Shown: in pieces, positions 11,872-43,323 of the stretch | Layout of the letters: every line of letters begins with the position of its first letter | Numbering within the stretch: position 1 is the stretch's first letter | Origin: a virus | Strand: one strand, 5' to 3' | DNA: 64,000 bases | IMG/VR virus record: IMGVR_UViG_3300042691_053485 | Location: 32,001 to 96,000 of that record | Translations under genes and position numbers: made by a program | Notes under the pieces: model-generated | Databases searched by the model: none | The model's input: only the letters and a program-made list of their open reading frames with translations | Told to the model about the DNA's origin: nothing

Positions 11872-12864
11872 ATGAATATAAAAAAGTTAAACGAAACATT
11901 CGACCGAATGAGCAAATCAGGCTTGTTCGGGAAACAAAGACCAATTCTATCCGAGAATTGGAGTCAAGAAGACATCCAAAAAATGAAGCAAATGCTTGCT
12001 TCAGGGGATATGGATAATATTAAGCTCGTTGAGCAGATGACTTCACCTCATCTTTTCAGAGATTTGGTGGATAGTGTTTATGGGGAGTTATTATCCTTTG
12101 CAAATAAAAAAGGCAGAGATGCTGGAGACATAACTTGGCTTTTTAGTAGGGGGGTATTGTATGCAAACAATACGCAACTAAGTACTGTTCCTGAAAACAT
12201 TGGAATTCTGAGTGGATTAGTGACATTGTTTTTGGAAGACAACAACCTGAGCAGCCTTCCGGAATCCATCGGCAACTTACATAATTTGGAAAGGTTAAAT
12301 TTGGGTAACAACAACCTGAGCAGCCTTCCGGAATCCATCGGCAACTTGCAGAATTTGCAACGGTTGGATTTATTCGGTAATAATCTGAGCAGCCTGCCGG
12401 AATCCATCGGCAACTTACATAATTTGGAAAGGTTAAATTTGGGTAACAACAACCTGAGCAGCCTTCCGGAATCCATTGGCAACTTGCAGAATTTGCAAGA
12501 GTTGGATTTGTCTAACAACAAGCTGAGTAACCTTACTAAAGGCTTCGAAAAATTGACAAAATTGACAAAACTCGGTTTAGCTCACAATAACCTCATTATA
12601 TTACCTGAAAGTATCAATAATTTAAGCCTATTAGAGATGTTAGATTTAACAGGAAATGGATTGCACACTCTTTCCGAAAGTATAGGAAATTTGAGTCAAT
12701 TAACAAATTTGAGTTTACGTAATAATAATCTGGAAACTCTCCCTCATAGCATCAGTAGCTTGAGTAGATTGAAGCGTTTATCGTTAGGGAGGAACAAATT
12801 TTCAAATACTGAAATTGAACGTATACAAACAATGCTTCCAAACTGTGGAATTTTTAATTTTTAA
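11872..12864 (+). CDS. LRR protein 1 (leader type A)
   Basis: 23-aa LPESIGNL repeats, LASGDMDNIKLV N-cap, LPNC C-cap; 138-bp internal duplication. Confidence 0.92.
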   Translation: MNIKKLNETFDRMSKSGLFGKQRPILSENWSQEDIQKMKQMLASGDMDNIKLVEQMTSPHLFRDLVDSVYGELLSFANKKGRDAGDITWLFSRGVLYANNTQLSTVPENIGILSGLVTLFLEDNNLSSLPESIGNLHNLERLNLGNNNLSSLPESIGNLQNLQRLDLFGNNLSSLPESIGNLHNLERLNLGNNNLSSLPESIGNLQNLQELDLSNNKLSNLTKGFEKLTKLTKLGLAHNNLIILPESINNLSLLEMLDLTGNGLHTLSESIGNLSQLTNLSLRNNNLETLPHSISSLSRLKRLSLGRNKFSNTEIERIQTMLPNCGIFNF

Positions 12865-12871
12865 TGTCATT

Positions 12872-13876
12872 ATGGATATAAAAAAAGTAAACGAAACATT
12901 CGACCGAATGAGCAAATCAGGCTTGTTCGGGAAAATACAAGAGGAGGTGTTTGATATAAAATCAAAGCTCACAAGCCTTCTAAAATCCGGAACACCGGAT
13001 AACATTGAACTTGCCATCATGGTAGCACAGGGTCAAGAGTTTGATATTGATGACTTGGTAGAAGAGCTTTTTGACTTGCAGTTTTGGATGGATAATCTTG
13101 ATGGTATTCCCCGGACAAGCAAGGTGGAAGCACTCCGTTTTTTGCTGTCAAAAACTATCATAAACCTTTACAGCAAAGGATTGTCGGAACTTTCTGAATC
13201 CATCGGCAACTTGCAGCATTTGCAAGAGTTGTATTTGTATAACAACAACCTGAGCAGCCTTCCGGAATCCATCGGCAACTTGCAGAATTTGAAAGTGTTG
13301 AATTTGGGTGAGAACAAGCTGAACAGCCTTCCGGAATCCATCGGCAACTTGCAGCATTTGCAAAGGTTGGGTTTGTATAACAACAACCTGAGCAATTTGC
13401 CGGAATCCATCGGCAACTTGCAGAATTTGCAAAGGTTAGGTTTGGGTAACAACAACCTGAGCAGCCTTCTGGAATCCTTCGGCAACTTGCAGAATTCGGA
13501 AACGTTGTCTTTGGCTAACAACAACCTGAGCAGCCTTCCTGAATCCATCGGCAACTTGCAGAATTTGCAAGAGTTGTATTTGTATAACAACAACCTGAGC
13601 AGCCTTCCGGAATCCATCGGCAACTTGCAGAATTTGAAAGGGTTGTATTTGCGTGGCAACAACCTGAGCAGCCTTCCGGAATCCATCGGTAACTTGCAAA
13701 ATTTGATAAGATTGGATTTATTTGATAACAACTTGAGCAGCTTGCCTGAATCTATCGGCAACTTGCAGAATTTGCAAGGGTTGAATTTGGGTAACAATAA
13801 TTTTCCTGAAGCTGAAAAGGAACGCATACAAAGAATGCTCCCAAACTGTAAAATATCTTTTAAACGAATACCATAA
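12872..13876 (+). CDS. LRR protein 2 (leader A plus body B), 9 canonical repeats
   Basis: Start reassigned to ATG 12872 by similarity to paralog starts; LKSGTPDNIELA; ends EKERIQRMLPNCKISF. Confidence 0.93.
   Translation: MDIKKVNETFDRMSKSGLFGKIQEEVFDIKSKLTSLLKSGTPDNIELAIMVAQGQEFDIDDLVEELFDLQFWMDNLDGIPRTSKVEALRFLLSKTIINLYSKGLSELSESIGNLQHLQELYLYNNNLSSLPESIGNLQNLKVLNLGENKLNSLPESIGNLQHLQRLGLYNNNLSNLPESIGNLQNLQRLGLGNNNLSSLLESFGNLQNSETLSLANNNLSSLPESIGNLQNLQELYLYNNNLSSLPESIGNLQNLKGLYLRGNNLSSLPESIGNLQNLIRLDLFDNNLSSLPESIGNLQNLQGLNLGNNNFPEAEKERIQRMLPNCKISFKRIP
13190..13800 (+). repeat. Tandem 69-bp LRR-coding repeats, GC-richer than the flanks
   Basis: Framework AACAACCTGAGCAGCCTTCCGGAATCCATCGGCAACTTGCAGAATTTG plus a variable block. 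Confidence 0.95.
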
Positions 13877-13878
13877 TA

Positions 13879-14766
13879 ATGAAAAACCCAAGACTTATCA
13901 TAACCGAAAAACAGGCAAAATTCGCCAAAAAAAACCTTTTTGAGGATGATAACCCCGAAGAAGTTCAAAAACTTCGTGAGATGTTATTCAGTGGTTCAAA
14001 GGAAACTATTAAAATTGCCCTTGAAGTTTCAGCTTCTTTGGGATATGATATTTCTTTGGATGTGTTCCCTGAATATATAGAACTTCAAAAGTTTTTCGTA
14101 ACACAAAAACCCGCAGGATTAGAGGATTCTTTCTATTCTATCCCAAATATAAAAAACTCACAAGCTCTTTCGGATTGGATTTTATCAATGTCCCAACGAC
14201 AATCTGCATATTTTGCAAATGTTAATAGTAATAATCTTCCACAGGGTGTTGCTATACTAGCGTCTTTGGTTGACTTAACATTGTCTGGCACATTTAGAGT
14301 CTTACCACCTGAATTAGGGAGTTTGCAGAATCTGCAAAGAATACATATTCGAAAGGGGATGTCGTTATCTGACATAAGTATCGTTTCACAACTTCAGAAT
14401 TTGCAGACCTTTGTTTGCAGTAACACTCGGACTTCAGACATAACACCCTTTTATAACACAAATATCAGAACGTTAAAGGTTGCAGATTCAAGAGTGAGTA
14501 AGACCGTGGTTATAAAAAATATGCCAAATTTACAAAGTTTACAATTAAACGGTAATATTGGTCTTAGGAATTTAGTTATTGAATCTGCCCCTAACCTAAT
14601 TGATATTTTCATCGAGGATTGCGACTTAGATGTACTTCCTGAAATATCTCACCTTCCAAACCTCCAACAAATTAATATACCTATTACAAGTCGAACTAAA
14701 CCACAAATTGCGGCTTATGTAGAAAAGAATAAAAACGTAAATGTTGTTATAAATCGATGGGCGTAA
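13879..14766 (+). CDS. LRR protein 3 (divergent repeats, ITE leader)
   Basis: MKNPRLIITEKQ; LFSGSKETIKIA; LPPELGSLQNL, LSDISIVSQLQNL. Confidence 0.85.
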   Translation: MKNPRLIITEKQAKFAKKNLFEDDNPEEVQKLREMLFSGSKETIKIALEVSASLGYDISLDVFPEYIELQKFFVTQKPAGLEDSFYSIPNIKNSQALSDWILSMSQRQSAYFANVNSNNLPQGVAILASLVDLTLSGTFRVLPPELGSLQNLQRIHIRKGMSLSDISIVSQLQNLQTFVCSNTRTSDITPFYNTNIRTLKVADSRVSKTVVIKNMPNLQSLQLNGNIGLRNLVIESAPNLIDIFIEDCDLDVLPEISHLPNLQQINIPITSRTKPQIAAYVEKNKNVNVVINRWA

Positions 14767-14768
14767 AA

Positions 14769-15632
14769 ATGGATATAAATAACCTTAACGAAATAATGAA
14801 GAAGCGTTTGGATGAAGGCTTCTTTGGGAACATACAAGAGGAAGATGAGTTTGATATAAAATCAAAGCTCACAGGTCTTCTAAAATCCGGAACACCGGAT
14901 AATATTGAACTTGCCATCATGATAGCACAGGGTCAGGAGTTTGATATTAATGACTTGGTAGAAGAGCTTTTTGATTTGAATTTTTGGATAGATAATCTCA
15001 AACGCATTCCCCAGACAAGCAAGTCCGAAGCTCTCAGTTTTTTGCTTGCACAAACTGCGATTGACCTTTCCAACAAAGGATTGCCAGCACTTCCTGAATC
15101 CATCGGCAACTTGCAGAATTTGGAATGGTTGAATTTAGATGGAAACAACTTGAGCAGTCTACCCGAATCCATTGGCAATTTGCATAATTTGAAATGGTTG
15201 GGTTTGAATGAGAATGACCTGCACAGACTTCCTGAATCCATCGGCAACTTACAGAATTTGGAATGGTTGGGTTTGTCTAACAGCAACCTGAGTAACCTGC
15301 CTGAATCAATCAGCAACTTGCAGAATTTAAAAAAGTTGTGGTTGGCTGGCAACAACTTGAATAGCCTGCCTGAAAGCATTGGAAATTTGCAGAATTTGGA
15401 AATGTTGGATTTAGGCCGCAATAACCTGAATAGCCTACCTGAAAGCATTGGAAATTTGCAGAATTTGGAAAAGTTGTGGTTGGAATCTAACAATTTAAGA
15501 AGTGTTCCTGAATCATTATACCTATTAAGGGGGTTGAACCGTTTAAACACAAGTGAAAACCCATTGCCTGAAGAAATTCAAGCCTCAATAAAGAAATTTT
15601 GCATTTACACCTCAATTGCACACGACCTATAG
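14769..15632 (+). CDS. LRR protein 4 (leader type B)
   Basis: MDINNLNEIMKKRLDEG; LKSGTPDNIELA; six canonical repeats, Trp-rich variable face. Confidence 0.93.
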   Translation: MDINNLNEIMKKRLDEGFFGNIQEEDEFDIKSKLTGLLKSGTPDNIELAIMIAQGQEFDINDLVEELFDLNFWIDNLKRIPQTSKSEALSFLLAQTAIDLSNKGLPALPESIGNLQNLEWLNLDGNNLSSLPESIGNLHNLKWLGLNENDLHRLPESIGNLQNLEWLGLSNSNLSNLPESISNLQNLKKLWLAGNNLNSLPESIGNLQNLEMLDLGRNNLNSLPESIGNLQNLEKLWLESNNLRSVPESLYLLRGLNRLNTSENPLPEEIQASIKKFCIYTSIAHDL

Positions 15633-16454
15633 ATGAAAACCTTTATAAGAAAAATATTAAGAGAACAAAGTGAACTTCCATTGGATTCTAAGTTTCAAAA
15701 GTGGTTTAATGGAAGTAAAATAACCACTGAATCAGGAACTCCTATGATATGTTATCATGGTACAAATGACCCTAACATAAAAGTTTTTGATTTGTCAAAA
15801 ATTGGGGCACATTCAGGCAATTATGGACATTATGGATATGGATTTTACTTTTCGGAAGATAAAGGGGAGGCAATGACTTATGGGAATGTAGTTTACGAAT
15901 GTTTCATAAGAATTATCAATCCATTCATTGGAAGTAAAGAGCAAATCATTGAACTTAAAAACGCAGGAGTCAGCGGAATCGATGATTTGGAGATTTTGTC
16001 AATAGATTTTCAAAGTTTCAAAAATTCACTAAGAGTAATTCCAATTTTATACAGTTTTGTTGAAGCATTCCAAAAGGAGGGTATGGAGGCAGCATGGGAT
16101 ATGTATCACCAATCCCAACATGATAATTTAGCTGACAAAGTGCAGATGGTTTCGGATATCCTTGAATTTACAACGTTTAATAAAAATGTTGATGGAGTTC
16201 CACAATATATTTTAGATAACATAGAGGCACTAGGAATTTCCCCTAAACTTAATAAGGGGCTGTCCTATGACCATCCATTACACTTTATAACAGATTTGGG
16301 TAGTAGAAGCAAAGAAATTACGGAGGTTATAAAGAAATTAGGGTATGACGGTGTCCATTATGGTTCAGAAATTGTTCCATTTTACCCCAACCAAATAAAG
16401 TCAATTCATAATGATGGGACTTGGAACTTACATGACAATAATATTTATTCTTAG
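15633..16454 (+). CDS. Second ART-PolyVal-like protein, with an internal insertion and an LRE leader
   Basis: WFNGSKI...CYHGT, GYGFYFS, LGYDGV, EIVPFYPNQIKSIHNDGTW...NNIYS, same ending as 9257..9826. Confidence 0.75.
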   Translation: MKTFIRKILREQSELPLDSKFQKWFNGSKITTESGTPMICYHGTNDPNIKVFDLSKIGAHSGNYGHYGYGFYFSEDKGEAMTYGNVVYECFIRIINPFIGSKEQIIELKNAGVSGIDDLEILSIDFQSFKNSLRVIPILYSFVEAFQKEGMEAAWDMYHQSQHDNLADKVQMVSDILEFTTFNKNVDGVPQYILDNIEALGISPKLNKGLSYDHPLHFITDLGSRSKEITEVIKKLGYDGVHYGSEIVPFYPNQIKSIHNDGTWNLHDNNIYS

Positions 16455-16544: not shown

Positions 16545-16574
16545 TGTTAAATGATATATTTATAAACAAAAGAA

Positions 16575-18008: not shown

Positions 18009-18904
18009 AGAAGCTTATTGTGTCAGAATCCATTTTTGACAAATTACAGTACCGCCAAGGAGATTTTAAATTTTCATCTGAAATTCAGGAGATTTCTAAC
18101 GAAATCAAAGAGTTTCTTTTGGAGGTTTCAAAATCTCCTGAACTATTTGAAAAACTTCGTAAGAATGGATGTGTCCACATAGGAAAAGAATTTATCGCCA
18201 TCAGATTTAATTTTGATAACTGCATTCTTTTAGATTCTTTTGATGGGGAATTTCTTTTGGGATTTTCAACTTCTTTGGGGGCTAAAACCCACCAAGGCAG
18301 AAAAGGATTCTTTTATCACAATCCAACTACTGAATCATGCCACATCAATCTTGTTATCAACCATCAATTTTCCAACGAAGAATTGATAAGTGAGTTAGCA
18401 GCAATATTTGATATGCGGAGGAAGACTTTCGCCCACGAATTCGCCCACTATTTAGACCACAATAAAAGTAGTGGTAAATTTGCTCAAGGATATGATGACA
18501 ATATAAAAAATCCGGAATATTCGAAACAGCAAGCTGAAGTAAATGCAATCTTCAAACAAGTTACATCTGAATTTTACAGCGATTTCAAAAGTGAATATGA
18601 ATCTCATTTGAAGTCTTGGAATGAGAATTCTAATAGCATCATCCAAGATATGATTGACATTGATGATGTAGAGGAAGGATTGAGTGAGCAACAATATTTT
18701 GACTTATATTTGACAGAGTTGTGGGTGCATAGTTCTGTCTGCAATATTGATTATCATTTAAACTTGATTTTAGACGATATTATTGTAAAGACGGGCGAAT
18801 TGTCACCGAGTCAGAAAAAACATCTCACAGGCAGAATCTATGTCTTCCTGAACAACATAAATGACCAGTTCGGAATCAATTGTAAATTGAAGATGAAATA
18901 TTAG
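18002..18904 (+). CDS. Zincin-like metallopeptidase with a VSE leader
   Basis: TFAHEFAHYLD plus downstream EVNA; paralog at 46352. Confidence 0.6.
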   Translation: MLKKLIVSESIFDKLQYRQGDFKFSSEIQEISNEIKEFLLEVSKSPELFEKLRKNGCVHIGKEFIAIRFNFDNCILLDSFDGEFLLGFSTSLGAKTHQGRKGFFYHNPTTESCHINLVINHQFSNEELISELAAIFDMRRKTFAHEFAHYLDHNKSSGKFAQGYDDNIKNPEYSKQQAEVNAIFKQVTSEFYSDFKSEYESHLKSWNENSNSIIQDMIDIDDVEEGLSEQQYFDLYLTELWVHSSVCNIDYHLNLILDDIIVKTGELSPSQKKHLTGRIYVFLNNINDQFGINCKLKMKY

Positions 18905-19389
18905 CCAATAAAGTCCAATAAATATTCTTTATCAGGATTATCATTTAGGACGCAGATAAATCCTAAATCACTATATTTTGTTGTGAAATCAGGCTCATGA
19001 GTTAGCTTACTGTGCATTTTGGGGATTTCCAAATCGTTTTGCATTCTGCCTTTGCCTGCATAAAAATGACCGTAGGTGTAAACAATTGCCTTCATAATCT
19101 TATATCCAAGACCTAAACCTTGCAAGCTGTTCGCAATATTAATATGTAATTGGTACAGAGTGTCCGCAATTACTTGGATGGAAACCGCAAGACCACTTTG
19201 GATGTTTACTCCACTAGGCAGGGGGGGGGTATCGATTGACAGCTGAATTGGAGACTCTTCATTTACTTGGTCAATAATTAGGTCTTCCCAAGAAATATTC
19301 CTAAGAAATTCTCTATCTTCATTAGAAATTTGAACTTCTTTTGAAATCGCTATTGCTTCATTTAGTAATTTTCGGATTATTGCCTTCAT
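18901..19389 (-). CDS. GNAT-like protein with an LNE leader
   Basis: Start reassigned to MKAIIRKLLNE (promoter motif at 19395-19402); acetyl-CoA motif LHINIANSLQGLGLGYKIM. Confidence 0.55.
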   Translation of the reverse strand: MKAIIRKLLNEAIAISKEVQISNEDREFLRNISWEDLIIDQVNEESPIQLSIDTPPLPSGVNIQSGLAVSIQVIADTLYQLHINIANSLQGLGLGYKIMKAIVYTYGHFYAGKGRMQNDLEIPKMHSKLTHEPDFTTKYSDLGFICVLNDNPDKEYLLDFIG

Positions 19390-19402
19390 TTTAATATAAA
19401 TA

Positions 19403-20629
19403 TTAGCCAAGCCTTATATCTTTGTTCAGCAAGTTTTCAATATTATAGTTTAACAGGTCTTGAAGTATCTTATCTTTTACGGACGGCATCCCGTGATAGC
19501 CATGCACATGAAATGCAATACTCTTTCGCACCAAATCTAAAAACTCTGCAAGAATATCCCCCTTAACCATTGGATGTGCGGTTGAATTGATTTCGATTTG
19601 GGTGTCTGCACTGATATTTTCGGTCGGGTCACAAAGATTATAGTTCTTTTCAGATTTGTGTGATAGCAAGTTTATTTTTTCTGCAACTATATTGATAACA
19701 CTACCTGCAAATTGGTCAAATGAATTCTTCTCTACAACCTGTACTTCTTTTTTTATAAATGTTTGGTTGTTTGGGAATAATTTCGGGAATGAGGATAACT
19801 CAGGTTCAACTGTTGATAGTTCCCACTTTGGATATATGGATTGGAACTCTCTAATTTTTGCCTTTGCTTCAGTTATTAGGTTGGCTCGCTTATCGAAAGA
19901 TTTGGAAAAACTCTCAAGAATTGTATTATCTCTATTCCCTGTTACCTTTATACTCAATCGGTTTTTGGTGTCTGTTACCACTGTTATTAACTGTTCCGCA
20001 GGGATGTTTACAACTTCGGTAACTATCTTTTTTTTACCTTCTTTTGAAGCATTATTTATTCCATGGCGAAGTTGGATATAGGCAGGGTCTTTTCTATTGA
20101 ATTCAGTCAATGTTTCTTTTGAATGTCTGCCACTTCTTATGAGAACTTCTGAATCCCTCATTTGAATGTCAGTATTCTTTCGCCCCAATATGGCAATAAC
20201 ATCCTTTTCAGGGTATGTACCCTTAGCATCAGGTATTTCGGAAATTGGATTGTCCCTATTCAGCCATGAATCACTTTCATTAGATGCAGCAGAATAGTGG
20301 TATGGGTCATATTCAATATTTTGGGGCTGTGATATGGTTGTTGAGAGATAATATCTCTTCTCTTGGTTAAGATTTTTATCACCTCGGTAAAGCCTATCAA
20401 GGAAAATCATTACTCGTTCCCCAACCTTCGGTACGAAGTGGAAGAATGGCGGGAACATTGGGTAACATTCAGGTAAATCTGAATTGTTTTCCACCTTTGA
20501 ATCTAACTCATAAACTCGAACTTTAATCATTCTTGATTCAAATCTATCTTCAATGCTCACGACTTCACCAAAAAATACGTTTTTTGTTGAAAGCTTTTCT
20601 GAAATGGTACTACTAAAGTCGGGTTTCAT
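19403..20629 (-). CDS. Baseplate hub/spike protein (gp5/gpV OB-fold-like N-terminus)
   Basis: FGEVVSIED...IKVRV...CYPM.P.F.H.VPKVGERVMIF; ILGR.N.DI; C-terminal HPMVKGD.L...HVH.YH. Confidence 0.7.
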   Translation of the reverse strand: MKPDFSSTISEKLSTKNVFFGEVVSIEDRFESRMIKVRVYELDSKVENNSDLPECYPMFPPFFHFVPKVGERVMIFLDRLYRGDKNLNQEKRYYLSTTISQPQNIEYDPYHYSAASNESDSWLNRDNPISEIPDAKGTYPEKDVIAILGRKNTDIQMRDSEVLIRSGRHSKETLTEFNRKDPAYIQLRHGINNASKEGKKKIVTEVVNIPAEQLITVVTDTKNRLSIKVTGNRDNTILESFSKSFDKRANLITEAKAKIREFQSIYPKWELSTVEPELSSFPKLFPNNQTFIKKEVQVVEKNSFDQFAGSVINIVAEKINLLSHKSEKNYNLCDPTENISADTQIEINSTAHPMVKGDILAEFLDLVRKSIAFHVHGYHGMPSVKDKILQDLLNYNIENLLNKDIRLG

Positions 20630-20631
20630 AA

Positions 20632-21033
20632 TTATTGTAAAATTGCTGTGCCGATTGCAATTGAAGTTGTTACACCTTGGGTTACAACCGGACCTGTAGG
20701 TCCGGTACCTGTTGAAGCAACAGGTATACCCGGCGGCAAAACAATTGTAAATCTAGCATTTTCAAGAAGATGTTTCACAATCACCTCCATTCTAATTCTC
20801 TCCATTTTTTCGGTGATACTATCACTTCCATCAGGTAACGGTCCGATGACTGCACCTGCTTCTTGCATCCTAATAATAACTTCTTTAGCCATATCTCTTG
20901 CAGATAAACCGCTTCTTTGGAAGCCCCCCGAAAGAATGAGTGGTGGTGCAACAGGTGGTGCAGGAACTTTATTTATGGCTATGACACCTTGTAGGATATT
21001 TAAGACCTGTTCAATATTTAATTCGACTTCCAT
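20632..21033 (-). CDS. Conserved baseplate-associated small protein
   Basis: Directly upstream of the hub gene; LPPGIPV..G.GPTGPV..G tail. Confidence 0.5.
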   Translation of the reverse strand: MEVELNIEQVLNILQGVIAINKVPAPPVAPPLILSGGFQRSGLSARDMAKEVIIRMQEAGAVIGPLPDGSDSITEKMERIRMEVIVKHLLENARFTIVLPPGIPVASTGTGPTGPVVTQGVTTSIAIGTAILQ

Positions 21034-21034
21034 A

Positions 21035-22432: not shown

Positions 22433-22824
22433 CGTAGGTCGTAAGTGTTTTGCTTTTTGGCTTCTTCAAGAACTGAGGCTCTGAGGTTTTTAATCTCTTC
22501 GCTTGAAAGCTTTCTTGTTTCTGCTTTAACATCTGAATCTTCAGCCTCTTCTTTCGCAGCTTGGAATCCAACCAACACCTTCGAATGAATTTGCAGTAGT
22601 TTTATCCTTTTGTCAATTACCTCATTCAGGATTTTTTTACTGTCATTTAACACTCGTTCAATATTCAATGAATCCTCTAAGTCTGTTGCTTGTGTTTTTA
22701 ATTTTTCGATTGCGGTCAATTGCGTAAGAAGGCTTATTTTTTGAGATTCACAATCTTTATAAGCTTCGTGCATAGAATCAAAAAGGCTGTCAACCTCAAG
22801 TTTAAGTTTGCTTCTTTTTGCCAT
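22429..22824 (-). CDS. Hypothetical coiled-coil protein
   Basis: 131 aa; minus-strand TATTTATA at 22835-22842. Confidence 0.55.
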   Translation of the reverse strand: MAKRSKLKLEVDSLFDSMHEAYKDCESQKISLLTQLTAIEKLKTQATDLEDSLNIERVLNDSKKILNEVIDKRIKLLQIHSKVLVGFQAAKEEAEDSDVKAETRKLSSEEIKNLRASVLEEAKKQNTYDLR

Positions 22825-22842
22825 AAGGTTTTCCTATAAATA

Positions 22843-24409: not shown

Positions 24410-24415
24410 TTTTTT

Positions 24416-26647: not shown

Positions 26648-26683
26648 GTTTTTATTTTAATTTAATATGAGAATGTATAAAAT

Positions 26684-28458: not shown

Positions 28459-28459
28459 A

Positions 28460-29065: not shown

Positions 29066-29067
29066 TT

Positions 29068-33405: not shown

Positions 33406-34895
33406 CTAATAACCTGAATATATTTTTTCAACTTGTTAATGTTTTTTGATATTTTAGGAAGAACATGCTCATTCATATCCTTTACCTCTAATTCCACCTT
33501 CTTAGGATTTTTACTCCTTGTTGTTGACTCAAAGTGATAGCACATTGCACTCCCAACATAAATATTTTTATAGTTTCTAATGATACACTCTAAATTTAAA
33601 ATGACATCCTCCATACAGTCATAGGTTTTTTCTTCAAACCCTTTGATGCCATCAAAAAGCACCTTTCGAATCATCAAAAATGCCCCGGTACTTCCCAAAA
33701 CATCATTTTTAGTCTTAAATCCGTGATAGAAGGTTTGAATGCCGTGGTGTGAAAGCCCTATCCTTCCCTTATTTACATAACAAACAATCCCTGCATGCTG
33801 TATTTTATTGTTGAGATAGTGTAGTCTGCAACCAATAGTACCAGTGGTTTTTGGCGATTTTAAATATTCTGCAACCATAATTGAAATTGCATCATTCATC
33901 ATCAAAATGTCATCATTAACAAACAATAACAGCTCGGTATCGGACTCGACATGATTTTTTACAACATCATTATTTATTTTTGCAAAATGGTAAAAGTCAT
34001 ATTCAATCAACTTGTCAATCACTCTTTCACCATTGAGTTGCCTAAGTTTAGAAATAGTATCAGATTCGCTGCCAGTATCCGCGACATAAATTTTATAGTT
34101 CCTGTATTGAGTTGTAAATCGAATAGATTCAATACAACTCTTCAGAAGCTCAAAATTATCCTTTGAAGGGATTATTATCGCAAGTTTGGGTTCTCGGGGT
34201 AACTCAACAATTTTATTCTCTATATGTGGCTGGGGGAAGAGTTCTAAGGGTAATTTATTCTTATAAGTCTCCGCAAATTTTCGTCTGCTATATTCCCACT
34301 CCTTTGAAACATTTCCAATAGAGGCGTGTCGGACTTTAAAATCGCTGACAACACCAATTTTAACACCTCGTAAATGATTCTCAACACAAAAAGGAATGTC
34401 ATAAAAGTGGAATCCTTCAAATTCTTCAACAAAATTTGCCTTGATTCTATCCTTTTTGATTGCGATAAAAAGTCCATCTACTGCAAGAACTTCTTGAATT
34501 GTGCTTGGGATTGATTCAGAATATTCGCTGTCTTTCCAAGCCCCCTTTTCGTCCCGATGATGAACCGACCCTACCATCAGATGTCGGTCTTGCCACCACA
34601 TTCCTGTTTCGGGTAATCTTGTTGTACCCGCAACGCCAAGTATTCCATAATTACTTTTTTGGAAGGCATCAAAAATTATTTTATCCCAGCCTTTACTTAA
34701 AAAAACATCGTCATGGATGCAAACCAAAATATCATTTGAACTTTCTAAAATCGCTTGATTATAAGCTTTTGCAAGCGAAGTTTGCCCATTATTTTCAAAT
34801 GGGATTATTTCCACATTCTCCAATACACAAGTCCCACGTAAATATGTTAAATGTTCATTGTCAATCTTTCGCGTCGAATAAAAAACAGAAATCAT
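33402..34895 (-). CDS. Tandem GT2 glycosyltransferase (YhfT-like domain + GT2)
   Basis: CIHDDV, GVAG, VDGLF, FHFYD; second domain IIIPSKD, FVNDD, IQHAG, GAFLM. Confidence 0.85.
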   Translation of the reverse strand: MISVFYSTRKIDNEHLTYLRGTCVLENVEIIPFENNGQTSLAKAYNQAILESSNDILVCIHDDVFLSKGWDKIIFDAFQKSNYGILGVAGTTRLPETGMWWQDRHLMVGSVHHRDEKGAWKDSEYSESIPSTIQEVLAVDGLFIAIKKDRIKANFVEEFEGFHFYDIPFCVENHLRGVKIGVVSDFKVRHASIGNVSKEWEYSRRKFAETYKNKLPLELFPQPHIENKIVELPREPKLAIIIPSKDNFELLKSCIESIRFTTQYRNYKIYVADTGSESDTISKLRQLNGERVIDKLIEYDFYHFAKINNDVVKNHVESDTELLLFVNDDILMMNDAISIMVAEYLKSPKTTGTIGCRLHYLNNKIQHAGIVCYVNKGRIGLSHHGIQTFYHGFKTKNDVLGSTGAFLMIRKVLFDGIKGFEEKTYDCMEDVILNLECIIRNYKNIYVGSAMCYHFESTTRSKNPKKVELEVKDMNEHVLPKISKNINKLKKYIQVIR

Positions 34896-34927
34896 TTTTA
34901 TTTTAATTTGGAATTCAAAGGAATAAA

Positions 34928-35941
34928 TTAAATTTCATTAGCTTTATCTCCGATTTCAATGATTTCATCAAATAGTTTATCAGAAAATAAATCTGTCACA
35001 AAAACCGTACTCTTTCCTGAAGACATTTCAAGATTGTAGTAAACAATGCTGCCTGAATCCCCTGCACCCAACTGTCCAATTGGATTGTCTTGGTCGTCAA
35101 ACCACTCTTTTAATAGCTTTACACTAATAATTCTACCCGCAAGCAGCGCTTTAGAAAATAAATGTAAATCCGTAACTGTCGTATAAATCAGTCCCTTGGA
35201 CAAAGAATTAGTCCATAGGTTGCCTCTCTCCATATTACCCGTTTCGTCAATTATAAATCCTATCATTTTTCTAACTTCAGGCTTTCTATAGTCAACTCGA
35301 CCGCTATTTCGACATCCCGCAGGAGCGAAAATATATTCTTCTAACAATTGATACCAACGTTTTTTCATCGTTAGCTCAGCAATCGTTGTGAGGATATAGA
35401 AATTTGAATTACTGTAAAGTTCCTCTTTTCCTGCTTCAAAATAAAGGGGGTACTGACTCAATGCACGCATAACATCGACCCATCCGAAAGATTTTGGGGC
35501 ATCTGGGTTGTACGATGCGAAATCGTCGATTTCATTCATGAAATCAGGAATACCACTCTTATGCAATAAGCAGTCTCTAACTGTTATATTACTCCACGCA
35601 TTCCAATCGTAGTAGTTGATAACATTCTTTCCATCTTTTGTAGGGTCTAGCCAATCGAGAATTGGGGCATCAAGGTCAATTTTACCTAGTTCTACAAGTT
35701 TAAGAATGAGAACTTTTACATGAGTTTTACTAACACTTTGAGCTAGGAACGGAGTGTTATTTTTGATTTTGCCTCGATTCCATTGAAACTTAACAACTCC
35801 CTTTGAACCGTCTTTTTCAAAGTCAACGACCTGTAAATTCAAACTTGGAATTCTGTACTCCTCTTTGAATTGTGCTAACTCTTTTATAATATTAATCCTC
35901 TTTCGATGTTTTGTTTCCGAAAGAATTGATTTAAACTTCAT
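34928..35941 (-). CDS. Serine hydrolase, beta-lactamase class C / PBP fold, with an LSE leader
   Basis: QSVSKT (SxxK), LLHKSGIPD, YSNSNF (YxN); start MKFKSILSE; minus-strand TATTTATA at 35954-35961. Confidence 0.82.
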   Translation of the reverse strand: MKFKSILSETKHRKRINIIKELAQFKEEYRIPSLNLQVVDFEKDGSKGVVKFQWNRGKIKNNTPFLAQSVSKTHVKVLILKLVELGKIDLDAPILDWLDPTKDGKNVINYYDWNAWSNITVRDCLLHKSGIPDFMNEIDDFASYNPDAPKSFGWVDVMRALSQYPLYFEAGKEELYSNSNFYILTTIAELTMKKRWYQLLEEYIFAPAGCRNSGRVDYRKPEVRKMIGFIIDETGNMERGNLWTNSLSKGLIYTTVTDLHLFSKALLAGRIISVKLLKEWFDDQDNPIGQLGAGDSGSIVYYNLEMSSGKSTVFVTDLFSDKLFDEIIEIGDKANEI

Positions 35942-36008
35942 AGGATGTTTTCCTATAAATATCAAACTTCGCTGGAACTTTTTTCACCGCCGTTAAGTTG
36001 TATGAACT

Positions 36009-36890
36009 ATGACAGAAAATATAAAATTGCTTATTGAAAGTGGACTAAAACAAAATCTGTTATTAGCAGAGCAGCTTGCAATTAGTGAAGAACTTAATTT
36101 TAATAATCTATTGGAGGAAGTTTGGGATTTGGATTTTTGGATGACCAACTTAAATAAGCTTGACATTATAGTAAATTTACATAACCCTATCGATATTGGT
36201 AAGATTGACCTTGTAAATTTTCTATTTACACAGGAAGAATTAATTTTTCGTGGAGTCGAACTTTTAATGTTCTCCAAAAATATCAGAAATTTTACAAATT
36301 TACAACGTTTATATTTAAATTGTAACAAATTAATTAGCATCCCTAGCAGTATCGGTAACTTACAGGATTTACGTGTCTTAGATTTATCCAACAACAAGCT
36401 GAGCAGCCTTCCTGAATCCATCGGCAACTTGCAGAATTTGAAAGAGTTATATTTGTATGGCAACCACTTGAGTAGCCTGCCTGAATCGATTGGCAACTTG
36501 CATAATTTGGAAAGATTGTATTTAGATGGCAACAACCTAAACAGTTTGCCTGAATCCATCAGTAATTTACAGAATTTACAAGTCTTAGATTTATCCAACA
36601 ACAAGTTGAGCAGCCTGTCTGAATCAATTAATCACTTACAAAATTTGCGAGTATTATGCTTGAGTGAATCAAATGTTAATGCAATTTTAGATTGTATTGG
36701 TAATTTGCCAAATTTGGAGTCTCTAAGGTTATATCTTGAAAATCCTAGTTTGATATCTGGTGATATAACCAGTATAAAAAAATTAAAATATATACTATTT
36801 TATGACAGCAACATCCCTATCAAACATATTAAAGCCTTCAAAAGAAAGTTAAAAGGGGTGCTAATCCATGACTGTATTAATAGATGTTGA
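36009..36890 (+). CDS. LRR protein 5 (leaderless)
   Basis: Starts at the N-cap LIESGLKQNLLLA; contains canonical 69-bp repeats. Confidence 0.9.
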   Translation: MTENIKLLIESGLKQNLLLAEQLAISEELNFNNLLEEVWDLDFWMTNLNKLDIIVNLHNPIDIGKIDLVNFLFTQEELIFRGVELLMFSKNIRNFTNLQRLYLNCNKLISIPSSIGNLQDLRVLDLSNNKLSSLPESIGNLQNLKELYLYGNHLSSLPESIGNLHNLERLYLDGNNLNSLPESISNLQNLQVLDLSNNKLSSLSESINHLQNLRVLCLSESNVNAILDCIGNLPNLESLRLYLENPSLISGDITSIKKLKYILFYDSNIPIKHIKAFKRKLKGVLIHDCINRC

Positions 36891-36931: not shown

Positions 36932-37561
36932 ATGGAAGCAATAAAAGGATTAATAGCAAGCGGACAAAAATCAAACCTCTTGTTAGCACAGCAATTCTGT
37001 ATCTGTGAAGGGTTAGATTTCGATGTTTTAGTAGAAGAAATTTGGGATTTAGATTTTTGGCGGACTCACTTATTTAAGCTCCGCAAAATTACTAATATCG
37101 AGGCTATAAATTTATTGTTTACCCAGAAAGAAATACACCTTTCTTTTAGGAAACTTTCAAAGGTTTCCAATAGTATTGGACTTTTAAATAATTTAAAGTT
37201 TTTGTTTTTGGATAATAATAAGTTGGTAGACATTCCAAAAAGTATTTCTAACTTGCAAAACTTACAAGTATTATTTTTAAATAATAATATTTTTGATACG
37301 ATACCTGAAAGTATTGCATATTTACAGGGTTTAAAAATATTAGGTTTAAGTGAAGCTAATGTTCAAGATATTTCAGATTGTATTACAAATTTACATAAAT
37401 TGGAGGATTTGAGATTATTTTATAATAAAATTCCTTATATTCCACAAAATATTGATACGTTGAGGTGTTTAAAATATTTATACTTTTCTGAAAACCTAAT
37501 TCCTATAGAGGAGCTTGAAGATTTGAAAAAACATCTACCTGAAACAAAAATTCTTTATTAG
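36932..37561 (+). CDS. LRR protein 6 (leaderless, AT-rich repeats)
   Basis: LIASGQKSNLLLA; IPKSISNLQNL, IPESIAYLQGL; ends LPETKILY. Confidence 0.88.
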   Translation: MEAIKGLIASGQKSNLLLAQQFCICEGLDFDVLVEEIWDLDFWRTHLFKLRKITNIEAINLLFTQKEIHLSFRKLSKVSNSIGLLNNLKFLFLDNNKLVDIPKSISNLQNLQVLFLNNNIFDTIPESIAYLQGLKILGLSEANVQDISDCITNLHKLEDLRLFYNKIPYIPQNIDTLRCLKYLYFSENLIPIEELEDLKKHLPETKILY

Positions 37562-38276: not shown

Positions 38277-39665
38277 CCGTTCTCAAAAACTTGCACAAAG
38301 TTGAACATGTCAAACATGTGCAGTTTTTGTTCCCAATTCATCGACAGGCTGAGTGCTGAAAAGCACCGAACTCCCATCTCCAAGGGCTGACACGGTGGAA
38401 CTCACCGCCAAATTTTTCAGGTTGATGCTTGCATTCAAATCCCTGTCAATTTCGAGGTGACAGAAATTGCAAGCATATTTTCTCTCAGAAAGTTTCAAAC
38501 TTTGTTTTTTGTTGCCACAACTTGAGCACAACTTGCTGCTGGCAAAGAAGGTGTTCGCCAAAATGACTTCTCCCCCATACCATGCTTTTTTGTACAACAG
38601 TTGTCTTTTGAACTCAAAAAATCCACCGTCAAGGATTGCTGATGCAAGCTTTTTGTTTTTCACCATGTTCTTGACCTTCAAATCCTCTATCACCACCACT
38701 TCAAAGTTTTTGGCGAGATAGGTTGTCAGTTTGTGAAGACAGTCCTTTCTTACATTTGCAACTGCGGCATGAATCTTTGCAAGCTTTTGAACAGATTGTT
38801 TGTAGTTGTTGCTTTGGCTTTCAGCTCCTCTAACAAATCTTCTGCTCACCTCTTTTTGTTGCCTTCTGAGTTTCTCCTTTGCCTTTTTGTAAGGCTTGAT
38901 ATTTTCGAATGTTTCTCCATTACTGAGTGTTGCCAAGGTTTTAACACCTAAGTCAACACCAACGACAAGTTCTTTCTTTTTTGTGATAGCCGGAATGTGT
39001 TCGACTCTGAATGAGATGAACCAGTGGTCAGCAGTCCTGCTGATTGTGCAGTTCTTTATGGACTTAACATCTAGTGTTTCGGATAATTTTACCCATCCAA
39101 TTTTTGGTAGTTTGACTTTATTCCCTTCTATCCTTATGCCATGTTTGTTACTATTTTCCAGATAGAATGAATCGCCTCTTCCTTTCTTCTTGTATCTTGG
39201 TAGTCCTTGCAGACCTGTTGAGGTCTTAACACCATTTACAATTTTATAGTGAAGAAGCTTGTATCCTGATTGCTTTTGCAGGCGGTGAAAGTTCTTGTAT
39301 GCTGTCTCAAGATTCCTCAGTGCTTGTTGTGGGGCGCATTTTGACACCTCATAATACCAAGCATGTTCCTTTTTCACCGTTGCTACAAGCCACTTATGAA
39401 GTGTGATGGCTGATGGGGTTGATTTCCCGTCTTTAAATAAGTCATTGCAATAGCTCAAAGCCTGATTGTAGGCATGACGAGCTGTGCCTGCATGTTTTGC
39501 AAACATCTGCTCCTGCAACCTTGTAGGCTCTAACCTTATCTTCAATGACTTGTATTGCATTTTCTGCTTATTTCAATCTGCTATAACCCGAAAAACTTAT
39601 ACACCATGTGGCAATTAATATACCAATGTTTAGAAATGTTACACTTTGTTCAAATATTTTTTAAC
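38277..39665 (-). mobile_element. Non-autonomous IS607/IS605-like element, tnpB only (copy 2, inverted)
   Basis: Same ends as copy 1; inserted just after the stop codon at 39671. Confidence 0.85.
38310..39560 (-). CDS. tnpB: TnpB RNA-guided endonuclease
   Basis: 416 aa, about 27 substitutions relative to copy 1 by manual count; catalytic D-E-D intact. Confidence 0.93.
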   Translation of the reverse strand: MQYKSLKIRLEPTRLQEQMFAKHAGTARHAYNQALSYCNDLFKDGKSTPSAITLHKWLVATVKKEHAWYYEVSKCAPQQALRNLETAYKNFHRLQKQSGYKLLHYKIVNGVKTSTGLQGLPRYKKKGRGDSFYLENSNKHGIRIEGNKVKLPKIGWVKLSETLDVKSIKNCTISRTADHWFISFRVEHIPAITKKKELVVGVDLGVKTLATLSNGETFENIKPYKKAKEKLRRQQKEVSRRFVRGAESQSNNYKQSVQKLAKIHAAVANVRKDCLHKLTTYLAKNFEVVVIEDLKVKNMVKNKKLASAILDGGFFEFKRQLLYKKAWYGGEVILANTFFASSKLCSSCGNKKQSLKLSERKYACNFCHLEIDRDLNASINLKNLAVSSTVSALGDGSSVLFSTQPVDELGTKTAHV

Positions 39666-39670
39666 TGCTG

Positions 39671-40219
39671 TCAGCCTTTTATTTTGTCTATTTCCTCATT
39701 TGAAACTTCTTCACTCAAATGAAGCTTCAAATTTTTCATTTGGGCTTCTGTTATCACAAGAACCTTTCGTTTTTCAAATGATTCATAGTTCACATTGTTT
39801 GTTGAGAGGTCATTTGAGGACATTGACTTATACAGTTTTGGTGTCCTCACTTTTGGAGTCTCTGAACCGTCTTTTGTATGGCTTCTTATGTAGGCATTGG
39901 ATTCGCCGGATTCCTTTTTTGCCTTTTTTGAGCTTTCGACTCGATTTCTTGCCGAACCCAATGTGGAATTTATCCAGCTTTCTAAGGAGCTTCCGCCATT
40001 CAAGAGATATAACGTCTTATTTCCTTTGTTTTTTTCCAAAATATGTTTGATGTTTTTCATATTTTGGTAGGATAACTTACCTACCGAAATGAGATTCTTC
40101 AAACGGACATATCCTTCCGAATGCTTGTCTCCTTTGTAGTTGTTAAGAATCTCTTGAAGATTTTTCAACAGTTCTTCGGGAAGGGAAAATGTTTTTCCTT
40201 GGAGGTTACTATTTGCCAT
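39671..40219 (-). CDS. Conserved-looking hypothetical large-phage protein
   Basis: RLKNL...LSYQNMKNIK...LNGG..L..WI; C-terminal VLVITEAQMK resembles the ITE leaders. Confidence 0.6.
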   Translation of the reverse strand: MANSNLQGKTFSLPEELLKNLQEILNNYKGDKHSEGYVRLKNLISVGKLSYQNMKNIKHILEKNKGNKTLYLLNGGSSLESWINSTLGSARNRVESSKKAKKESGESNAYIRSHTKDGSETPKVRTPKLYKSMSSNDLSTNNVNYESFEKRKVLVITEAQMKNLKLHLSEEVSNEEIDKIKG

Positions 40220-40976
40220 GTATTTCTCTTATTACTCTTTGTTCATTGTATAATAAACGACATCCACTTGGGATTAGTGTTTCAAGCGTTTTAGCTTCTT
40301 CAGTTGTTGCTTCGCCAATTTCAATGGTTCTCAGTGTAGGGGGTAGTTTTGGAAGGGATTTTTGTAAATCTTCTATTGGTATTTTAGAATCTCTTAAATC
40401 TATCCTATTCAGATTCATACCTTCAAGTGCTACCGGGAATTTCGTAAGCCTGACTCCTGTTATACTTAAAGTTTTAAGATTATGAAGTTGTTTAATTTTA
40501 GGTGAGATGGTTGTAATATCACTACAAGCCTTAATATACAGGTGCTTTAAAGATTCAATGGCAAAAATTTCATCAGGTATTTCCTTTAGATATAAGTTGA
40601 AAAGAGTTATATCTGAGATTTTTTTCAAGTGAAGTAGTTGGGCATAATCAATTTTTGGGGAGGTATAACTTATTTCTATTCTTGGGGAATTTAAAAGTCT
40701 CATAATAAAATCTACATAATCACCATTTCTATATGGCATCATAGGCGGTCGAACAACGTATGTTAATAGTTCTACAGGCTTAACTAGTTCTCTATAGTTA
40801 ATTCCCATCCCATCTGCAATCTCTATTGCAAGCCTTATGTTATCCTCTTGACCTGACAAAATCAATCGTTTGATATTTTCTTCAGGATTGAAGTCATCTT
40901 CATTTTCATTTATTAAAACTTCTTTGGCAGATTTTAACTGCTTTTCGGTTATTATGACCTTTATATTTTTGACCAT
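40209..40976 (-). CDS. LRR protein 7 (ITE leader; same type as LRR3)
   Basis: MVKNIKVIITEKQ; LILSGQEDNIRLA; IPDEIFAIESL. Confidence 0.85.
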   Translation of the reverse strand: MVKNIKVIITEKQLKSAKEVLINENEDDFNPEENIKRLILSGQEDNIRLAIEIADGMGINYRELVKPVELLTYVVRPPMMPYRNGDYVDFIMRLLNSPRIEISYTSPKIDYAQLLHLKKISDITLFNLYLKEIPDEIFAIESLKHLYIKACSDITTISPKIKQLHNLKTLSITGVRLTKFPVALEGMNLNRIDLRDSKIPIEDLQKSLPKLPPTLRTIEIGEATTEEAKTLETLIPSGCRLLYNEQRVIREIHGK

Positions 40977-41718
40977 TGTTTAAAATTATTTAAATCGCTT
41001 CTGATTTGTTTTTCTTCACAAAATTCAAATAGACGGTTTATCGTTTCTTGAGTTAAGGGGTTTCCCTTTATGAAAAGCCACTCAAGTGTTGATAGTTTGA
41101 AGAGTGATTCCGGCACGGATGTTAGCTTATTATTTTCAAAATCTAATGGGTTAAATTTTCCATTAAGTGAATATTTTCTGGAATTGACGTTAACTTATTT
41201 CTACCTAATCCCAATTGCTGTAAAGATTTTAATTTAACAATTGAAGTAGGTAGAGATACAATATCATTAGATTCTAATAATAGTGACTTTAAATCGTTTA
41301 AGTCGCCAATTGATTCCGGCAGTTTAGAAATTGCATTAGCACGCAAATCAATACTATTCAAGTGTGGTAAATATCCAATACTATTTGGGATTTTAGATAT
41401 TCCCTTGTCCGCAAGGTCTATTGTTTTAAATCCTTTTAGCTTATAAAGAATATCAGTGGTAGTTTTTGCAGTTATGTCATACATGAAAAAATGTTTTATC
41501 CAGAATTTTAATTCCCAGACTTCAGAAAATAGTGTGTCAAAATCAAAACCAAGTCCTTGGGCGACAGATTTTGCAAGTTCAATATTGTCCGGTGTTCCGG
41601 ATTTTAGAAGGCTAGTGAGCTTTGATTTTATATCAAACTCTTCCTCCTCTTGTATGTTCCAAAAGAAGCCCTCATCCAAACGCTTCTTCATTATTTTATT
41701 TATTTTGCTTATGTCCAT
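40961..41718 (-). pseudogene. LRR protein 8 (leader B), broken by a 1-nt frameshift near 41145
   Basis: ORF stops at ...NLTH*; adding one T restores HLDFENNKLTSVPESLFKLSTLEWLFIKGNPL...WSKI* ending at 40961. Confidence 0.8.
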
Positions 41719-41733
41719 TTTTTTAATTGATTT

Positions 41734-42519
41734 TTAAAATTCCACTTCACAATTTGGAAGCATAACCTTCAACCTCTTTATTACATTTGTGGGTATCGTA
41801 TTGCCGGACAAATACAACCCTTTCAAATTCTGCAAGTTGACGATAGATTCCGGAAGGCTGCTCAGGTTGTTGTTATACAAGCGCAACCATTCCAAATTCT
41901 GCAAGTTGCCGATGGACTCAGGAAGGCTGCTCAGGTTGTTGTCTTCCAAATACAACTCTTGCAAATTCTGCAAGTTGCCGATGGATTCCGGAAGGCTGCT
42001 CAGGTTGTTGTTAGTCAAGCGCAACGCTTGCAAATTCTGCAAGTTGCCGATGGATTCAGGAAGGCTGCTCAGCTTGTTGTTACCCAAATTCAACCCTTGC
42101 AAATTCTGCAAGTTGCCGATGGGTTCTGGAAGACTGCTCAGGCTGTTGTTATACAAGCGCAACACTTGCAAATTCTGCAAGTTGCCGATGGATTCAGAAA
42201 GTTCCGACAATCCTTTGCTGTAAAGGTTTATGCTAGTTTTTGACAGCAAAAAACGGAGTGCTTCCACCTTGCTTGTCCGGGGAATACCATCAAGATTATC
42301 CATCCAAAACTGCAAGTCAAAAAGCTCATTTAGCAAAGCATCAATGTCAAACTCCTGACCCTGTGCTACCATGATGGCAAGTTCAATATTATCAGGTATT
42401 CCGGATTTTAGAAGGCTGGTGAGCTTTGATTTTATATCAAACTCCTCCTCTTGTATATTCCCAAAGAAGCCTTCATTTAAACGCTTCTTCATTATTTTAT
42501 TTATTTTGCTTATGTCCAT
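41734..42519 (-). CDS. LRR protein 9 (leader B; body nearly identical to LRR2)
   Basis: Six canonical repeats; ends LSGNTIPTNVIKRLKVMLPNCEVEF. Confidence 0.93.
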   Translation of the reverse strand: MDISKINKIMKKRLNEGFFGNIQEEEFDIKSKLTSLLKSGIPDNIELAIMVAQGQEFDIDALLNELFDLQFWMDNLDGIPRTSKVEALRFLLSKTSINLYSKGLSELSESIGNLQNLQVLRLYNNSLSSLPEPIGNLQNLQGLNLGNNKLSSLPESIGNLQNLQALRLTNNNLSSLPESIGNLQNLQELYLEDNNLSSLPESIGNLQNLEWLRLYNNNLSSLPESIVNLQNLKGLYLSGNTIPTNVIKRLKVMLPNCEVEF

Positions 42520-42534
42520 TTTTTTTATGTATTT

Positions 42535-43323
42535 TTAAAATTCCACTTCACAATTTGGAAGTATAGCCTTCAACCTCTTTATTACATTTGTTGGTATCGT
42601 ATTGCCGGACAAATTCAACTCTTCCAAATTCTGCAAGTTGCCGATGGATTCCGGAAGGTTGCTCAGCTTGTTGTTACCCAAATTCAACAATTCCAAATTC
42701 TGCAAGTTGACGATGGATTCAGGAAGGCTGCTCAATAGGTTATTAAACAAATACAACCCTTGCAAATTCTGCAAGTTGCCAATGGATTCAGGCAGGCTGC
42801 TCAGCTTGTTGCCACTCAAATCCAACTCTTTCAAATTCTGCAAGTTACCGATAGATTCCGGAAGATGGCTTAGGCTATTGTGATTCAAATTCACAGATTT
42901 CAAATTCTGCAAGTTTCCAATCGATTCAGGCAGGCTGCTCAGGTTGTTGTTATCCAAATACAACACTTTCAGCTTCTGCAAGTTGCCGATAGATTCAGGC
43001 AGTGCTGACAATCCTTTGCGGGAAAGGTCTATGATAGCTCTTGACAACAAAAAACGGAGAGCTTCAGATTTGCTTGTTTGGGGAATGTTATCAAGATTTT
43101 TCATCCAAAACTTCAAGTTATAAATCTCTTCTGCCAAGGCATCAATATCAAAATCTTGCCCTTGAGCTATCATGAACGCAAGCTCAATGTTATCAGGTGT
43201 TCCGGATTTTAGAAGGCTGGTGAGTTTTGACTTTATATCAAACTCATCTTCCTCTTGTATGTTCCCAAAGAAGCCTTCATTCAAACGCTTCTTCATTATT
43301 TCGTTAAGTTTATTTAAATTCAT
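42535..43323 (-). CDS. LRR protein 10 (leader B; body like LRR4, C-cap like LRR9)
   Basis: IPQTSKSEAL shared with LRR4; LSGNTIPTNVIKRLK..LPNCEVEF shared with LRR9. Confidence 0.93.
   Translation of the reverse strand: MNLNKLNEIMKKRLNEGFFGNIQEEDEFDIKSKLTSLLKSGTPDNIELAFMIAQGQDFDIDALAEEIYNLKFWMKNLDNIPQTSKSEALRFLLSRAIIDLSRKGLSALPESIGNLQKLKVLYLDNNNLSSLPESIGNLQNLKSVNLNHNSLSHLPESIGNLQNLKELDLSGNKLSSLPESIGNLQNLQGLYLFNNLLSSLPESIVNLQNLELLNLGNNKLSNLPESIGNLQNLEELNLSGNTIPTNVIKRLKAILPNCEVEF

Follow-up and report, generated by a model that had tools for sequence, protein, structure and literature searches.

Leucine-rich repeat (LRR) solenoids serve as recognition modules in plant and animal innate immunity, in the antibodies of jawless vertebrates and in many bacterial effectors, and the LRR proteins of Leptospira are bacterial and exported. 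In phage T4 the prohead protease gp21 cleaves after (L/I)-x-E. This enzyme strips N-terminal propeptides from the T4 internal proteins and from Alt, all of which reach the prohead core by means of a capsid targeting sequence and are subsequently injected (PMC3012670, PMC5694885, PMC5512222). The internal proteins have only the targeting sequence in common (PMC3012670) and are believed to act against host defences once injected (PMC3012670, PMC5694885), while in SPN3US there are ejection-protein paralogs with two x-E sites (PMC5694885). In phage Goslar, a paralog family with a conserved N-terminal module and variable domains, including LRR and β-helix domains, has been proposed to form a tail-associated fibre cloud (PMC13742148). 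Here we analysed a 64,000-nucleotide stretch of viral DNA, referred to as the window, which corresponds to bases 32001–96000 of a 184,534 bp contig (IMG/VR record IMGVR_UViG_3300042691_053485; 35% GC, CheckV completeness 68%). It encodes ten LRR proteins with a fixed scaffold and a concave face that appears to have diversified under selection, and those that carry a short N-terminal leader are, by analogy with T4, probably head-packaged ejection proteins.

The initial annotation had recognised ten LRR genes in three clusters (LRR1–4, LRR5–6 and LRR7–10), and all ten open reading frames (ORFs) were found where it had located them:

11872–12864, plus strand: LRR1, 330 amino acids, nine units (four canonical), leader MNIKKLNE
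12872–13876, plus strand: LRR2, 334 amino acids from the ATG at 12872 (the ORF opens at 12815), nine canonical units
13879–14766, plus strand: LRR3, a divergent type-C member with irregular LRRs, leader MKNPRLIITE
14769–15632, plus strand: LRR4, six canonical units, type-A leader
36009–36890, plus strand: LRR5, type B, with the N-cap right at the start
36932–37561, plus strand: LRR6, type B, four non-canonical units
40209–40976, minus strand: LRR7, the most divergent type-C member
40961–41718, minus strand: LRR8, type A, with a frameshift near 41143
41734–42519, minus strand: LRR9, six canonical units
42535–43323, minus strand: LRR10, six canonical units, type-A leader

The likely starts of LRR2, LRR4 and LRR6 were corrected to 12872, 14769 and 36932, respectively, and the whole contig carries 17 LRR genes, two of them truncated by its ends. 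Nine of the ten window proteins passed the Pfam gathering cut-off for LRR_8/LRR_14, with LRR7 falling below it, and all ten matched PHROG 6688 (LRR7 at 1e-10). None has a signal peptide, their N-termini being charged and non-hydrophobic, and Pfam detected no second domain in any of them. Alignment recovered the N-cap motif in all ten, as had been described, with S-G, N and L invariant and with deviating forms in LRR1, LRR3, LRR5 and LRR6. They are treated here as one phage-specific family of small LRR proteins, each with a helical N-cap, 3–9 units and a C-cap, and the units of most members are 23 residues long. Past the frameshift of LRR8, two more units and the C-cap lie in another frame (40961–41194, minus strand); this gene could be a pseudogene or reflect an assembly error, and an intact 247-residue relative (P0066) exists elsewhere.

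Structure prediction indicates that the genes encode LRR solenoids. In the AlphaFold2 (AF2) model of LRR9 (predicted local distance difference test, pLDDT, 91.6) the leader, residues 1–27, is of low confidence, and a five-helix N-cap (residues 29–93) that includes the S-G...N-I-x-L-A motif is packed on the first repeat like an ordinary LRR cap. Six repeats follow, with strands at unit positions 13–15, and then a helix-strand C-cap, while the AF2 model of LRR7 (pLDDT 74.8) shows seven strands ~23 residues apart. Foldseek top matches were all LRR proteins, with repebody and variable lymphocyte receptor (VLR) structures among them, and the nearest solved structures were Leptospira LIC11098, LIC10831 and LIC12759, then SHOC2, with the C-cap included in the match. 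Likewise, a phmmer comparison with Leptospira-type LRR proteins gave an E-value of 1e-95, with the alignment reaching the chain C-terminus.

Sequence variation within the repeats is concentrated at a few positions. Across the 35 canonical 23-residue units in the window, entropy was 1.8–3.1 bits at unit positions 12, 13, 15, 17, 18 and 20 and 0–0.8 bits elsewhere, and 51 of the 57 canonical units on the whole contig had distinct signatures at these six residues, with Y, W, D, N, R, G and S frequent. Since the predicted strands of LRR9 fall at unit positions 13–15, the variable residues would line the concave face, which is consistent with the placement first proposed for them. We then estimated the ratio of nonsynonymous to synonymous divergence (dN/dS) by the Nei-Gojobori method, both between units and between six-unit paralogs in register. 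Between units, variable codons gave a ratio of 1.3, compared with 0.12 for the convex side and 0.06 for the core, and between paralogs it was 1.89 at variable codons, 0.11 in the framework, 0.35 in the N-cap and 0.16 in the leader, with a value of 2.4 at variable codons for the closest pair. Between-unit dS was alike across codon classes (0.55–0.75), which indicates that the framework is kept by selection on amino acids and not by DNA identity. The framework had been called nearly constant at the DNA level; its amino acids are indeed constant, but with a proportion of synonymous differences (pS) of ~0.41–0.48 at framework codons (dS 0.6–0.75) the DNA-level description was overstated. Divergence from the nearest relatives in other metagenomes was counted at the protein level, instead of as orthologous dN/dS, and amounted to 56% at variable positions, 8.5% in the framework (p = 7e-34) and 27% in the N-module (p = 3e-11).

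Taken across paralogs and units, the excess of nonsynonymous change on the concave face that the initial annotation had proposed to look for was present (1.3–1.9), and these comparisons support diversification of the binding face. With a fixed scaffold and a diversified concave face, each paralog would therefore present a different protein-binding surface. The earlier idea of a diversifying set of binders thus agrees with the data in that concave-face codons have a dN/dS of at least 1 and the remainder is strongly constrained, while the targets named for it are conjecture. Exchange between paralogs was also apparent. A 191-nt identical tract is shared by paralogs 40 kb apart, offset by two units, and among database proteins P0014 consists of LRR2 residues 1–140 joined to the last 92 residues of LRR9 and P0131 equals the relative P0033 less exactly two units, although both variants could still be assembler chimeras. 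P0014 lies on a separate 4.4-kb contig and, if real, implies a ~28 kb inversion between oppositely oriented paralogs.

An exhaustive search for the N-terminal module among 1.84 billion representative proteins returned only four true relatives, each a small LRR protein encoded on a related contig, and an N-cap profile search, limited by its word index, gave matches from the same lineage only. It is this N-cap that makes the family phage-specific, and its genes adjoin ADP-ribosyltransferases (ARTs). In the complete phage G001 (368 kb), LRR_8 matched 103 times across ~30 ORFs, many of which open with the same N-cap motif. One of its LRR ORFs adjoins an ART-PolyVal gene, Peptidase_S77 is also encoded, and no homolog of the capsid protein of the present phage was detectable in G001. 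In the same phage (L048 2803–4365) the ART-PolyVal gene and the two small ORFs next to it start with MRRIVE, MRRIIE and MRRVYKSLNE, making G001 a second lineage with short x-E leaders beside LRR genes. The statement that no phage system of this form had been described needs narrowing, given PHROGs 6688 and 21719, the annotated LRR genes of Leptospira phages and the ~30 ORFs of G001; nevertheless, our literature search found no paper describing LRR multigene expansions in phages, the nearest being that on the Goslar DUF7941 family.

The phage origin of the DNA, assumed from the start, was borne out by genes for a portal, a gp21-type protease, a gp23 major capsid protein (MCP) and a tail sheath. 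The first three, gp20-like, Peptidase_S77 and gp23-family, respectively, form with a scaffold-position gene a T4-type head module, and the contig further encodes a DNA polymerase and a helicase as well as the sheath; the virus is a myovirus with a T4-type head module. Its closest deposited MCPs, from an uncultured huge phage, Microcystis phage Mel-JY01 and Flavobacterium phages, are only 43–45% identical, and Megablast against phage records gave no matches. The MCP (6186–8012) has 608 residues, of which the best-scoring Gp23 Pfam match spans only 357–593, and its long N-terminal extension is not explained by the Gp23 model.

LRR clusters 1 and 3 lie in operons, and the following features are of relevance to the LRR genes:

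4164–4934, plus strand: gp21-type prohead core protease (Peptidase_S77, E 1.9e-20), the candidate enzyme for leader removal
9257–9826, plus strand: second ART-PolyVal, upstream of cluster 1
11284–11856, plus strand: operon head ORF of cluster 1, leader MKVLISE, with a TATTTATA box at 11266–11273
15633–16454, plus strand: ART-PolyVal ADP-ribosyltransferase, abutting LRR4, leader MKTFIRKILRE, of the pattern MK..I.K.L.E
43320–45116, minus strand: 598-residue ORF with no family match, heading the LRR10-LRR9-LRR8 operon, with a TATTTATA box (minus strand) at 45134–45141
16557–16564: further TATTTATA box
57347–57354: further TATTTATA box

Cluster 1 runs in the order ORF 11284, LRR1, LRR2, LRR3, LRR4 and ART with gaps of 0–15 nt, cluster 2 adjoins the lysin-like β-lactamase-fold gene and glycosyltransferases, and cluster 3 shares its strand with the DNA polymerase and helicase genes. 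There are 59 TATTTATA boxes on the contig, 26 of them no more than 40 nt upstream of a start codon where ~1.5 would be expected, and the distance to the start codon is 3–34 nt, mostly 9–13 nt. Genes with the box in front of them include those for the protease and the sheath, a gp25-like gene and the first genes of LRR clusters 1 and 3, and it probably acts as a late promoter that leaves very short leaders. The regions upstream of gene starts are A-rich and lack Shine-Dalgarno sequences. The T4 late promoter TATAAATA was also considered and occurred 18 times against 6.8 expected, but the gene-oriented box is TATTTATA and not the T4 consensus as such. PADLOC defence models gave no match for the LRRs or ARTs and one marginal match for ORF 11284 (E 6e-4). 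Polyvalent proteins are defined by several unrelated catalytic domains per polypeptide, which the LRR proteins do not have; only the adjacent ARTs belong to a polyvalent-associated family, and LRRs are not mentioned in the paper on polyvalent proteins (Iyer et al. 2017).

A leader motif, hydrophobic-x-[KRT]-[KR]-x-L-x-E, was found at 12 N-termini compared with 0.36 expected, and the proteins that bear it, among them an ART and the type-A LRRs, belong to at least six unrelated families, while type-C LRR leaders end in I-T-E. Most of the LRR proteins have a conserved leader with a hydrophobic-x-Glu ending, a site type that T4-type prohead proteases cleave. The leader is disordered in prediction yet constrained, as its dN/dS shows. 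Short leaders ending hydrophobic-hydrophobic-x-E, such as MKAIIRKLLNE, MKVLISE and MLKKLIVSE, were also seen on many unrelated ORFs (for example 18901–19410 on the minus strand and those at 15633, 11284 and 18002), and [LIVFM][LIV]xE ended at residues 6–13 in 24 ORFs, compared with 3–12 in later segments of the same proteins.

We propose that the family expanded by gene and unit duplication, with segments exchanged between paralogs by homologous recombination, and that diversifying selection has acted on the concave face while the scaffold stayed fixed. The LRRs would be made late, from the promoter-like box that also precedes structural genes, and the leader-bearing members would be targeted to the prohead core, trimmed by the gp21-type protease and ejected with the DNA into the next host cell. 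There each injected LRR might bind and block or redirect a host protein, a scheme that resembles T4 internal proteins and Alt. Because the TATTTATA box is shared, ARTs flank the LRR genes, the x-Glu leader is constrained and a gp21-type protease is encoded, injection from the capsid is plausible but unproven, and we hold the explanation as a whole tentatively, judging it to fall just short of likely. Several observations weigh against it. Plain [LIV]-x-E is not enriched at N-termini, and the motif of type-A LRRs lies eight residues deeper than that of the other proteins with leaders. Furthermore, the late-gene role of TATTTATA derives solely from the identity of the genes downstream, and paralog-based dN/dS values of 1.3–1.9 do not formally exclude relaxed constraint. 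Finally, LRR5, LRR6 and the G001 LRRs begin at the N-cap without a separate leader, and packaging therefore cannot be a general rule of the family.

The leaderless members would also be expected if the LRRs were diversifying binders that are not packaged but are produced during infection and act inside the cell on proteins of the host or of rival phages, in takeover, anti-defence or superinfection exclusion, with the leader having some other purpose such as regulation, localisation or partner docking. The lack of signal peptides and the position of cluster 3 on the DNA polymerase and helicase strand are in keeping with this, and the selection pattern fits it equally well. However, a disordered leader under such strong constraint (dN/dS 0.16), common to unrelated proteins including an ART, is harder to accommodate, as are the presence of a gp21-type protease and of the same box upstream of LRR operons and structural genes, and we consider that the LRRs could act unpackaged but that this is on balance rather unlikely.

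We further considered whether the LRRs are virion-surface or tail-associated proteins for host recognition, in which the N-module docks on a common site and the variable face binds the cell surface, widening host range. Jumbo phage Goslar offers a precedent (PMC13742148), the promoter-like box is common to LRR operons and structural genes, and cluster 2 adjoins genes for a lysin-like protein and glycosyltransferases. Against this, the N-module is predicted to be an ordinary LRR cap and not a separate docking domain, Pfam detected no domains for fibres, trimerisation or carbohydrate binding, the leaders look like propeptides that a protease removes, and the operon of cluster 1 also encodes an ADP-ribosyltransferase, an enzyme that must act inside cells. 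A tail-associated role is therefore quite improbable.

It is likewise improbable, and to be doubted a little more strongly, that the variable positions are unconstrained surface residues drifting neutrally in host-acquired genes, with no adaptive repertoire. Variable-codon dN/dS is near 1 in some genes (0.4–0.75 within LRR1, LRR4 and LRR5) and cellular LRR proteins of the same consensus are abundant, but drift does not agree with pooled values of 1.3–1.9 and 2.4 in the closest pair, nor with residue usage at variable sites that is biased to Y, W, D, N, R, G and S and not random. Moreover, 17 copies have been kept with almost all frames intact, the N-module has no cellular counterpart among the 1.84 billion representative proteins, and the design recurs in the unrelated 368-kb phage.

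Programmed diversification, in which adenine mutagenesis of the diversity-generating retroelement (DGR) type or cassette assembly of the VLR type writes the variable codons, is highly improbable. The third codon base is often fixed at variable sites while bases 1 and 2 vary, AAY codons are common there, and chimeric and unit-deleted variants are known. However, the contig, at 68% completeness, yielded no reverse transcriptase (RVT_1), and position-12 codons are CAA, GAA and AAA, with two adenines that never vary. Synonymous divergence at variable codons is not raised over that of the framework and equals it, which argues that there is no mutational hot spot, and targeted mutagenesis of the DGR type was rejected on these three grounds. 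Likewise, a pattern scan found no capless donor cassettes of the VLR type, all units lying in complete capped ORFs except for those of LRR8 and the two end-cut genes. With no reverse transcriptase on the contig and no adenine-specific pattern, selection and inter-paralog recombination explain the variation. The comparison with lamprey VLRs made in the initial annotation is thus apt for the fold and the binding face, but neither somatic assembly nor targeted mutation is indicated.

Seventeen studies (2017–2025) had freshwater or "fungus metagenome" runs that contain the stretch, and contigs from three of these studies (2017, 2019 and 2024) span 11697–11911, 12481–12917, 13768–14458, 14448–14785 and 15438–16381 with 0–1 mismatches, bridging junctions between unique phage genes and LRR genes and between one LRR gene and the next. 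This comparison used Logan contigs only, in which paralogs cross-map at 85% likeness, so that differences and joints inside repeats are uninterpretable. Assembly error, including the mistaken joining of host DNA, can practically be dismissed as the origin of the clusters, as, although both contig ends break within LRR genes and Logan contigs are fragmented over repeats, contigs from independent freshwater metagenomes bridge these five junctions.

Elsewhere in the window are two TnpB elements, 91% identical over 1382 nt:

9829–11210, plus strand: TnpB/IS605-OrfB (Cas12f-like TNB) element
38277–39668, minus strand: TnpB/IS605-OrfB (Cas12f-like TNB) element

They are inverted relative to each other and enclose a 27-kb segment holding LRR clusters 1 and 2, and the top cellular relative of TnpB is from a Spirosoma metagenome-assembled genome (52% identity). 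A long minus-strand block (19403–35965) includes two multi-domain glycosyltransferases (31087–34895) and the β-lactamase-fold lysin-like gene (34928–35965), and suggests glycan modification functions. A tRNA search of the window found none.

Fast-evolving phage LRR families, with 17 genes here and ~30 in an unrelated phage, point to a large unstudied class of phage–host interactions. A bolder reading, which we think unlikely, is that N-capped LRR binders are kept as inherited repertoires in large phages of unrelated lineages, and that some of these binders would be capsid-loaded by means of a protease-removed leader and co-injected with ADP-ribosyltransferases, each paralog disabling a distinct defence or sensor protein of the host as the DNA enters, with new specificities continually arising by inter-paralog recombination. 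If true, such a co-injected repertoire would give phages a counterpart to LRR-based innate immunity. Should the LRRs prove to be anti-defence binders that are injected, every paralog would direct attention to a host protein that merits identification, and the scaffold would be a natural, compact and stable binder platform.

Of the known systems, the Leptospira proteins LIC11098, LIC10831, LIC12759 and LIC12234 (PDB 4u08, 4u06, 4u09 and 4tzh) are the best sequence (E 1e-95) and fold matches, sharing the 23-residue units with their L-P-x-x-I-G-x-L-x-x-L framework, the C-terminal cap and a highly self-similar scaffold, and they have likewise expanded as multigene families. In contrast to these, the phage LRRs have no signal peptide, carry a lineage-specific helical N-module and leader, and occur in a lytic-type T4-like phage. 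They also score far below the cut-offs of the corresponding NCBIfam models, with 75 bits against 1000 for LIC_11051 and ~31 bits against 1050–1600 for internalins (with no Internalin_N match), and models of type III LRR effectors (XopL, XopAC, SlrP/SspH) gave 29–91 bits against cut-offs of 450–1243. Phage-encoded LRR proteins are also represented by PHROGs 6688 and 21719 and by Leptospira phage LE1. The PHROG 6688 match (E 1e-46 to 1e-73) spans the repeats and C-cap only and leaves the N-module outside, and these PHROGs have no assigned function and fewer copies per genome (1–5 tblastn places in Leptospira phage records). As with T4 IPI-III and Alt, diverse small proteins and an ADP-ribosyltransferase appear to have only a short hydrophobic-x-Glu leader in common, in a phage with a gp21-type protease, but there is no sequence similarity, and the putative cargo would be one paralogous repeat family instead of unrelated proteins. 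The Goslar DUF7941 is an independent oligomerising module specific to chimalliviruses, whereas the N-module of the present proteins caps an LRR solenoid, in a context of head genes and ARTs. Finally, a capped LRR solenoid with a variable concave face is common to the phage proteins, lamprey VLRs and engineered repebodies, but VLR diversity arises somatically from cassettes, whereas here each variant is an inherited complete gene.

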